Source of the DNA: a virus
Taxonomy: Duplodnaviria > Caudoviricetes
Reading direction: 5' to 3' (one strand)
IMG/VR virus record: IMGVR_UViG_3300028886_000037
Coordinates: 1 to 64,000 of that record
Length of the DNA: 64,000 bases
How positions within the stretch are numbered: position 1 is the first letter of the stretch; the number at the start of each line of letters is the position of its first letter. Positions 11,467 through 50,970 of the stretch are shown one piece after another. The notes under the pieces are model-generated. The model was not told where the DNA came from. It ran no database searches and worked only from the letters and a program-made list of their open reading frames with translations. Position numbers and translations under genes: made by a program.

Positions 11467-11583
11467 ATTTTCTTCCTTGTATGGATAATATACTTATTTG
11501 TTGCGGTGTTCGTTATTCGTCATCCTAACATTTTTCTTGATTTTAAGATTTCAAAATGTTAGGATGAAGAAAAATGTTATGGT

Positions 11584-11868
11584 CTAGCCGTTGTACTTCG
11601 GAAGTTTCGGCTTTCGGATTCGATCAACGACCTGAACAGAAGATTCGTAAGAGCCAGATCCGTCCCAAGACCACTTGAAGTAAGTATCGCTCTCTACTTC
11701 GCAATGGCCAGGACCTGTTGAAGCATAGCCTGGAGTAGCATCACCTCAGTCACGACGGCACTTCTCTTTGGCGAGCTCCCAGTTTTCTTTGGAATATGGA
11801 AATGTCTCGATGTGGTCATCGGTGTGGCGGTCGTGGTGGATGTAGACGATAGATTTGCGATTGGCCAT
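11584..11868 (-). pseudogene. Small hypothetical gene interrupted by an in-frame TGA
   Basis: AGGAG RBS; MANRKSIV...KCRRD*GDATPG...KYNG*; TGA at 11746-11748. Confidence 0.65.
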
Positions 11869-11899
11869 TTGATGTCTCCTTGTTGAGGTTTTAGTTAAA

Positions 11900-12184
11900 G
11901 GCTATGTCCACTCAATGTGTTGCTAGTTGGACTTAGCAGACCACCAGGCATCTTGCATTTCACTCAAATCATCCCGAATTTCTAACAACTGTTCATAATA
12001 ATACTGATATTTGGCGTCCGCTACATCTTCATTGAGTTCAGCTCGTTGTTCAATATAACGTGCAAACTCAATCAGATTATTAGAAATTTCTTTAATTTTT
12101 TCTTTTGTCATATCTACTCCTCTGGTTAGTTTTAGACATTTTTGGGCGTTTTATAGGCCAGCAACACTTTGGGTGGACATAGCC
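11900..12184. mobile_element. Non-autonomous IS1595-family (ISPna2-like) mini-element / mobile insertion cassette
   Basis: 25-bp terminal inverted repeats beginning GGCTATG (23/25 match); 8-bp direct repeat TAGTTAAA at 11892-11899 and 12185-12192. Confidence 0.8.
11923..12111 (-). CDS. Hypothetical helical passenger protein inside the mini-element
   Basis: GAGGAG RBS; AT-richer than the flanks; stop codon overlaps the left TIR. Confidence 0.65.
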   Translation of the reverse strand: MTKEKIKEISNNLIEFARYIEQRAELNEDVADAKYQYYYEQLLEIRDDLSEMQDAWWSAKSN

Positions 12185-12193
12185 TAGTTAAAA

Positions 12194-12499
12194 TTACGCT
12201 TCGTAGCCCTGAAGACGAGCCAGGCTGATGAAGTACTGCTTGGTCATCAGATCCCAGTGATTGATGTAGTCTTCGATGCAGTCGACGGCAGTTTCCATGA
12301 CCTTGTCATGGGGACCATGTGCGGTGAAGAGGACTTCGTCGTTGAGCTCGGTAGCGAGGATCGAAAGAGAGTTGCGGTCTTTGACGAGCTTGCACTTGAT
12401 CGGACAGACGTCTTTCTTGTTGAGGTCGAAGATAGTGCCGCTCTTCATGGCTTCGAGCTTAGCGATCATGCGGGTCTTTTGGTCTTTCGTGTACTTCAT
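12194..12499 (-). CDS. Hypothetical early protein
   Basis: AAGGA RBS; downstream of the conserved early promoter. Confidence 0.7.
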   Translation of the reverse strand: MKYTKDQKTRMIAKLEAMKSGTIFDLNKKDVCPIKCKLVKDRNSLSILATELNDEVLFTAHGPHDKVMETAVDCIEDYINHWDLMTKQYFISLARLQGYEA

Positions 12500-31416: not shown

Positions 31417-31449
31417 AGTTGATTCTCCTTGTTGAGTTTATTTATAGAG

Positions 31450-49260: not shown

Positions 49261-49814
49261 TGAAGCTTTGCGTGAACGAAGCCGAGCTCGATAGCCTTTC
49301 CGACCGTGAGCTTGTCGCCCTCTTTGAGTCCTAGCTCATTGCTTCCATCAGAAGACAGATGACTAGGAGGCAGCGGATCTCCTGGATGGAAAGTGAACAT
49401 GCAAGCGCCATATCCGCCATCTCCGATGATGATTACTGTGTAGTCTACGAACCATCGCATTGCAGACGACGCGAAAGGATCGGTGAGAACGAGAGACAGA
49501 GTTCCGGTTCCCTTCACGTCCATCATCGTGCAAATGAGATTGTGATTAAGTTCCTTTAGAGGAATCATTCCGAGCCACCCACGAATAGCATCAGTCTTGA
49601 AGGCGCGACAACCAGGCGCTACTGCGGGATGGTCATACTTGTACCACGAGACGTGCATCAGCGCACGTTCTAGATCTTCAGCGTGGACATAGTCAGTTAC
49701 GCTGCCTTTCCCGTTGCAAAGACGCTGCTCGATGCACTTGCGGAAATACTCTGGATCGTGTTCTTTTGTTCGCTGGATCGCGTGCCACACGTACTGATTG
49801 TAATCGTAGTCCAT
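49257..49814 (-). CDS. Hypothetical protein
   Basis: AAGGAG RBS; TFHPG motif. Confidence 0.65.
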   Translation of the reverse strand: MDYDYNQYVWHAIQRTKEHDPEYFRKCIEQRLCNGKGSVTDYVHAEDLERALMHVSWYKYDHPAVAPGCRAFKTDAIRGWLGMIPLKELNHNLICTMMDVKGTGTLSLVLTDPFASSAMRWFVDYTVIIIGDGGYGACMFTFHPGDPLPPSHLSSDGSNELGLKEGDKLTVGKAIELGFVHAKLQ

Positions 49815-50761: not shown

Positions 50762-50970
50762 TGTTCTCTGTCCTCTTTGCGGTAAGTGTCGTAATGCACT
50801 TCAGTTTCTCTTTCATAGTGAAATTGACGGCCGCATACGTCACATTCATACTCAGAGCAGTCGCTCGACAGCTCGTTGCTGTTCTCGTGAATGTAGCCGC
50901 AATACGGGCACACCATCTCTTTGGTGTGCCAGCTAAAAAGTTTCTTTCTAGTATCTGCGAATCGGTCCAT
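50755..50970 (-). CDS. Zinc-ribbon protein
   Basis: CPYCG ... CDVCG. Confidence 0.65.
   Translation of the reverse strand: MDRFADTRKKLFSWHTKEMVCPYCGYIHENSNELSSDCSEYECDVCGRQFHYERETEVHYDTYRKEDREQC

Follow-up and report, generated by a model that had tools for sequence, protein, structure and literature searches.

The window analysed here is a 64,000-nt stretch from the 247,923-bp genome of a tailed jumbo phage of the cattle rumen, and it codes for a tail sheath protein, a tail tube-like protein, a helicase and a DNA polymerase. Between two small phage genes lies a mini-cassette of 285 bp (window 11900-12184), which holds one gene and has no transposase in its interior. The features of the locus are, in window coordinates:

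11584-11868, minus strand: downstream phage gene, cut to 40 aa by an in-frame TGA at 11746-11748
11892-11899: target-site duplication, copy 1, TAGTTAAA, an exact 8-bp direct repeat that adjoins the element end
11900-11924, plus strand: terminal inverted repeat on the cargo-stop side, GGCTATGTCCACTCAATGTGTTGCT, containing the TAG stop of the cargo gene (11923-11925)
11923-12111, minus strand: cargo gene, 62 aa, predicted two-helix hairpin protein, the sole ORF of the cassette
12117-12122, minus strand: Shine-Dalgarno site of the cargo gene, GAGGAG, 5 nt before the ATG, kept in all 285-bp copies
12123-12159, minus strand: subterminal region, GGCC-T/GATAAAA...CCAAAA...CTAAAAC, common to the non-transposase end of larger elements
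12160-12184, minus strand: terminal inverted repeat on the upstream side of the cargo gene, equal to the family consensus
12185-12192: target-site duplication, copy 2, TAGTTAAA, an exact match to copy 1
12194-12499, minus strand: upstream phage gene, 101 aa, with its stop codon 1 nt from the duplicated target

The original prediction described near-perfect inverted repeats, flanked by an exact 8-bp duplication and enclosing a single AT-rich 62-aa ORF with its own ribosome-binding site in the orientation of its neighbours, and we recover each of these features. The two repeats agree at 23 of 25 positions, leaving 2 mismatches (26 nt at 92% with the adjoining A/T counted). The repeat at 11900-11924 differs at 2 positions from the family consensus GGCTATGTCCACCCAAAGTGTTGCT, which was derived from at least 20 elements. 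A search for the 25-mer end with up to 3 mismatches returned only two places in the 64-kb window and none in 100 shuffles, and across the whole phage genome the matches are confined to the two sites of the cassette. The G+C content of the cassette is 38%, compared with ~45-52% in the flanks. Read inward from the ends, its subterminal region resembles those of four other elements (L006 R, L009 R, L018 L and L043 L). Two candidates for a second element in the window were rejected: a 12-mer resembling the end (49683-49694) falls inside a 185-aa ORF, and a weak transposase match (50791-50934) encodes a 71-aa zinc-ribbon protein. Among the isolate phages in INPHARED there was no match to the cassette or to the 2.8 kb around it.

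An empty version of the insertion site, the existence of which had been put forward as a check on the prediction, was identified on metagenome contig L026, which is ~90-91% identical to the window. L026 43-838 is aligned with window 13000-12185, and L026 831-1644 with window 11899-11071. As these two alignments overlap by 8 bp, at a single related 8-mer (TTCAATTA vs TTTAACTA on the minus strand of the window), L026 lacks exactly the cassette and one copy of the 8-mer (285+8 bp, 293 bp). The 8-mer of L026 follows the stop codon of the 101-aa gene and precedes the ribosome site of the gene after it. The comparison shows that the cassette inserted into an AT-rich spacer between the 101-aa gene and a phage gene of ~90 aa, duplicating 8 bp. 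In two more distant relatives (L017, L025) the two flanking genes are adjacent and there is no cassette, and in two others (L015, L016) the entire stretch 11584-12193 is missing. Contigs L057-59 carry the cassette at the orthologous site with 95.4% identity, which is like the identity of the flanks, indicating that the insertion occurred before the split between the window and L057-59 and after the split from the L026 lineage.

We also observed conserved inverted repeats of the CCTAACATTTT type at 11513-11583, at the edge of the variable segment and 300 bp from the cassette. L015 and L016 join 12194 straight to 11583, and L014 and L017 hold other DNA there. One possibility is that these repeats act as a regulatory site, another that they are a hot spot of recombination.

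Homologues of the 101-aa upstream gene occur in four viral contigs at 74-93% identity and also in L026 and L057-59. The downstream gene is 89-97 aa long in L026, L057 and L025 and 83 aa in L017; the L057 copy is called intact at 94 aa. The codon at 11746-11748 is TGG (Trp) in L026, L025 and L017 vs TGA in the window, and the frame is open to 94 aa if the TGA is read through, so the TGA is probably a nonsense mutation. As the gene is truncated by a nonsense codon, the insertion was possibly not harmless, or the gene may be dispensable. A leader, CTCAACAAGGAG, precedes the downstream gene and recurs before other genes of the window (11876-11887, 31425-31436 and others, minus strand; n = 17 at up to 2 mismatches, 7.7 expected), a recurrence that does not establish the early timing which the original prediction gave to the operon. 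The ribosome-site context of the cargo gene differs from this leader.

The cargo gene lies on the same strand as the 101-aa gene and the gene at 11868-11584 (all minus). We identified cargo homologues in 35 database clusters at 76-100% identity, with the frame open in all of them, and pN/pS is 0.24-0.57 for all pairs except two near-identical ones. An AF2 model (pLDDT 84) predicts two helices, 3-25 and 33-61. The protein has no Pfam or PHROG match above threshold, with only noise below it, and the same holds for its neighbours. A search of PDB and BFVD with the model found no fold match with E below 0.7; the best was the hairpin of phage Aqs1 (E = 3). The name 'chorismate mutase', given to one homologue in one source, is without support. 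Our best guess for the cargo is a small accessory factor that binds protein and either helps the phage or is neutral to it.

The cargo gene adjoins one element end in each of the 13 contexts examined, its stop codon falling within the end repeat or at it, and in these contexts the gene was never found apart from such an end. Gene tables place it co-oriented with the upstream gene in 12 of the 13 contexts, for which a one-sided binomial test gives ~0.002 on the assumption of independent contexts, and these contexts are not fully independent. A scan for sigma-70-type promoters, the consensus for which may not suit Fibrobacter or phage promoters, revealed no promoter-like site within the cassette; candidates were located only upstream of the 101-aa gene, at the frequency expected by chance. 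The gene is absent from the 151 Fibrobacteraceae genomes searched. As a separate observation, the last cargo codons (11926-11961, the minus-strand 3' end; GCTAAGTCCAAC) show similarity, in opposite orientation, to the first 13 nt of the end repeat, and a related cassette (L049) has a nearly full second end repeat at this place. Judging from this resemblance, the cargo C-terminus may derive from a former element end, as a trace of cassette construction.

More than 20 contigs have a record of the identical 62-aa protein, and copies of the cassette 98.9-99.6% identical to that of the window occur in unrelated contexts. The same cassette is flanked by its own perfect 8-bp duplication in L065 (TTTTCAAA) and in L067/68 (ATTTAAAA). 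Its presence at several sites with different perfect duplications, together with the empty site, shows movement as a unit, the mark of a mobile insertion cassette (MIC). Further copies are without matching duplications (L011, L062/64/69, L066), which points to later recombination between copies or to complex events, so that some copies moved or were reshuffled by recombination and not by simple transposition. In L011 the cassette lies terminally in a larger element that lacks a transposase and is related to that of L004/L006.

The original prediction also called for a search for cassettes with the same ends and different cargo, and these exist. Sister cassettes hold unrelated small genes, encoding 146 aa in L005 (626 bp) and 188 aa in L009 (807 bp). 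A third, in L007 (3210-3797; L012 is the same locus in reverse), is a 456-bp cassette with a 115-aa gene nested in a 132-bp cargo-less element, with duplications of ATTGCTAT for the 456-bp insert and AACGTAGA for the outer element; without its nested insert the 132-bp outer element is a true empty MITE of the family. Larger cassettes combine the cargo gene with others (L047, 940 bp, three genes; L049, 534 bp, two genes; L043, 359 bp). The 16 target duplications, that of the window and 15 perfect ones in relatives, are 88% A+T. At one further locus (L039 3001-4320, on a 349-kb contig with similar contigs of up to 431 kb), the cargo gene stands beside an end repeat, and beyond it come a Zn-ribbon IS1595 remnant truncated to 217 aa and another end; these very large contigs are phage-like and carry a prohead protease domain. 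The locus has the look of an autonomous copy that has decayed within a genome of megaphage size.

An exact-pattern scan for the ends found ten loci in IMG/VR and seven loci among one genome per prokaryote species (185,579 species). In the latter set, exact matches came only from MAGs of Fibrobacter, Fibrobacteraceae and Hallerella. Five of the six bacterial elements with the same ends have perfect 8-bp duplications, and the 25-nt end is present in 9 of 151 Fibrobacteraceae genomes. The bacterial MAGs contain one copy each, which is weak evidence because repeats often collapse in such assemblies. Autonomous elements with these ends, which the original prediction had proposed to look for, were thus found both in these MAGs and on phage contigs. 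The L010 element, on a phage contig, is 3750 bp long with the duplication AAAAAAAT, and the L004/L006 element (~4.4 kb, duplication TTTTAAAT) lies beside a UvsX-like recombinase gene on a 160-kb viral contig. Realignment of the ends delimits further complete elements, likewise flanked by perfect, AT-rich 8-bp duplications, of 6010 bp (L019), 3919 bp (L021), 3503 bp (L022), 2458 bp (L024) and ~5.2 kb (L020/L023).

Every element of at least 1.75 kb encodes a protein of 351-366 aa. The L010 protein matches the NCBIfam model for IS1595 family transposases (NF033547; 173 bits, E 6e-51, cut-off 75) and Pfam DDE_Tnp_IS1595 (PF12762; 39.5 bits, cut-off 27), and its Zn-ribbon match is below the Pfam cut-off and above the NCBIfam cut-off. 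For the transposases of the other elements, the match to the L010 protein has an E of 1e-160 or lower. The catalytic D, D, N/E/H, K set of the family is represented by D170, D255, N290 and K297, which are invariant when 11 transposases with identities as low as 41% are aligned, a sign of conservation and not of activity. The predicted IS1595-like character of the ends is supported by these elements, in which the same 25-nt ends and 8-bp duplications bound a gene for an NF033547-matching transposase. All the autonomous relatives found carry extra genes (1.75-6.0 kb), the passenger-carrying ('tIS') form, and no plain 1.1-kb copy, as for a simple single-ORF IS of the ISPna2 group (~1.0-1.15 kb), occurs among the exact-end matches sampled. 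The passenger genes of L010 encode secreted proteins. In the Fibrobacteraceae MAG element (L020 2849-8000 and L023 1-42), a C5 cytosine DNA methylase (Pfam 320 bits) adjoins an unannotated 243-aa ORF, and these may be a restriction-modification pair; the element also bears glycosyltransferase-like genes.

Mobile insertion cassettes, for example MIC231, consist of IS ends around one or more non-transposase genes, with a target duplication, and are mobilised in trans by a cognate transposase. MIC231, derived from IS231 in the Bacillus cereus group, has the same architecture and presumed mode of movement as the window cassette; it belongs to the IS4 family and resides on bacterial chromosomes and plasmids, whereas the window cassette belongs to IS1595, resides in phage genomes and carries phage-type small ORFs as cargo. 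MPME1 and MPME2 are similar by description: these ultra-small mobile elements of mycobacteriophages have short inverted repeats and a single small ORF, and closely related genomes differ in whether they carry them. Their repeats are much shorter and we know of no cognate transposase for them, whereas the autonomous partner and the family of the cassette are identified. Within IS1595, the ISPna2 group has ends of the form GGCnnTG according to ISfinder, a rule that we did not find in the searchable papers, and the window ends (GGCTATG) have this form, as had been predicted.

The closest named transposases are those of the ISSag10 family, which are 49% identical to the transposase of the Fibrobacter elements. 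A copy of tISSag10/MTnSag1 on an Enterococcus plasmid has 25-nt ends (GGCTCTGTCAC... and GGCTATGTCAC...) starting GGCTCTG and GGCTATG, so that both elements have 25-nt ends starting GGCT(A/C)TGTC, with 17-18 of 25 positions in common. tISSag10/MTnSag1 (Streptococcus agalactiae) and tISCpe8 (Clostridium perfringens) are autonomous elements of 1.7-2.0 kb with a transposase and a lincosamide resistance gene, and their homes are Firmicutes chromosomes and plasmids, in contrast to the phage genome, 285-bp length, lack of transposase and 62-aa gene of the window element. For tISSag10/MTnSag1, 25-bp repeats, 8-bp duplications, AT-rich targets, a circular intermediate and probable replicative excision have been described (PMC5704250). 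The window element is like tISSag10 in its 8-bp duplications, in its preference for AT-rich targets and in carrying genes not involved in transposition (PMC5704250). The 8-bp target-site duplication is part of the definition of the IS1595 family (PMC8101967).

Viral MITEs are non-autonomous elements that share the same ends between phages and bacterial hosts, so that they can serve to link a phage to its host (Nadal-Molero et al. 2024, PMC11602168), and they were found in only 0.01% of viral sequences (PMC11602168). The host link here is to Fibrobacteraceae. Viral MITEs are non-coding, whereas the interior of the window element is almost entirely a conserved ORF with pN/pS below 1, and we therefore reject its identity as a MITE. 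Insertion sequences have been reported as rare in phage genomes (PMC3429520), and we found no paper on IS1595 in jumbo phages or in Fibrobacter phages.

Based on the shared ends, the duplications and the likeness in published properties, we assign the window element to the IS1595-family MICs. Window 11900-12184 is very probably a non-autonomous MIC derived from a passenger-carrying IS1595 transposon ('tIS') of rumen Fibrobacteraceae and large phages, in agreement with the transposase-less mobile insertion cassette of the original prediction. A MIC is a known kind of element and ordinary IS biology; its location in a phage is unusual and rarely reported.

The cassette keeps two predicted transposase-binding ends of 25 nt, ~35 nt of subterminal sequence and one 62-aa gene. 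We found no matching transposase in the 248-kb genome of the window phage, suggesting that the cassette would have moved in trans, with a Zn-ribbon + DDE (D,D,N,K) transposase of 351-366 aa supplied either by a copy on the chromosome of a Fibrobacter host or by a co-infecting phage with an autonomous copy. To judge from relatives, this transposase would bind the ends and move the cassette into AT-rich 8-bp targets. By analogy with the route proposed for tISSag10/MTnSag1, movement probably proceeds through a circular copy-out/paste-in intermediate. Because there is no promoter-like site inside the cassette and the gene is co-oriented in 12 of 13 contexts, translation of the cargo likely uses its own GAGGAG, on transcripts that read through from the phage operon. 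The cassette may give the phage a means of acquiring genes, as the original prediction proposed; its cargo might instead be of use to the element.

In that alternative, the 62-aa gene is an accessory gene of the element itself (a cofactor, a regulator or an anti-loss factor) and the cassette is selfish and not a gene-acquisition route, which we consider unlikely and yet the most serious of the alternatives. The constant position of the gene at an end in 13 of 13 contexts, its absence away from such an end and from the 151 Fibrobacteraceae genomes, and its open frame with pN/pS below 1 are all consistent with an accessory role, and copies at least 99% identical in unrelated contexts are as expected for an actively spreading unit. 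However, the autonomous elements examined (L004, L010, L018-L024) lack the cargo gene, indicating that the transposase does not need it, and the sister cassettes hold unrelated genes within the same ends. The orientation bias fits selection for expression from phage transcripts and serves either reading.

It is improbable that the cassette is an inert fossil, that is, an old and immobile insertion with an unexpressed gene and no present function in the phage. The single copy without a transposase in the 248-kb genome, the end that departs from the consensus at 2 positions, the lack of a promoter-like site inside and an insertion older than the split from the L057-59 lineage would fit a fossil. 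In contrast, the copies of 98.9-99.6% identity elsewhere, with perfect duplications, indicate that this sequence type moved recently, and the frame is intact in all 35 clusters, with fewer amino-acid-changing than silent differences and a conserved Shine-Dalgarno site.

Inverted repeats abound in phage intergenic regions, including the conserved one 300 bp away at 11513-11583, but the reading of the repeats as a palindrome enclosing a native phage gene, whether arisen by chance or regulatory in nature (an operator or terminator pair), is already refuted by the identical ends that flank IS1595 transposase genes in bacteria and phages and by the exact 285+8 bp empty site, to which are added the shuffles, none of 100 yielding such a pair, the exact 8-bp duplication, and the hairpin of the cargo 3' end with the end repeat, on which the terminator idea depended and which is no stabler than shuffles (z = +1.0).

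How virulent phages acquire their many small orphan genes is largely unexplained. The IS1595-family MIC described here is a clean case of a small conserved gene put into a jumbo phage operon: the site is known both filled and empty, and the transposase family is identified. The restriction of exact end matches to Fibrobacteraceae, among the genomes of 185,579 species, also provides a host link. The two 25-nt ends within 285 bp are predicted to form a minimal mobilisable unit, a possible tool for Fibrobacter or its phages. More broadly, and with somewhat less than even confidence, we propose that the IS1595 element is a phage-adapted shuttle, with autonomous copies in large Fibrobacter phages and sense-oriented intergenic mini-cassettes of 1-3 genes that are exchanged between unrelated lytic phages and also offer mobile stretches of homology at which recombination can occur; on this view, recombination of this kind left behind the copies that lack matching duplications. 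Such a shuttle, if true, would give virulent phages a transposon-based way to exchange accessory genes. Its role, though not its mechanism, would be like that of integron cassettes or of the promoter-stem-loop cassettes found in T4-type phages.
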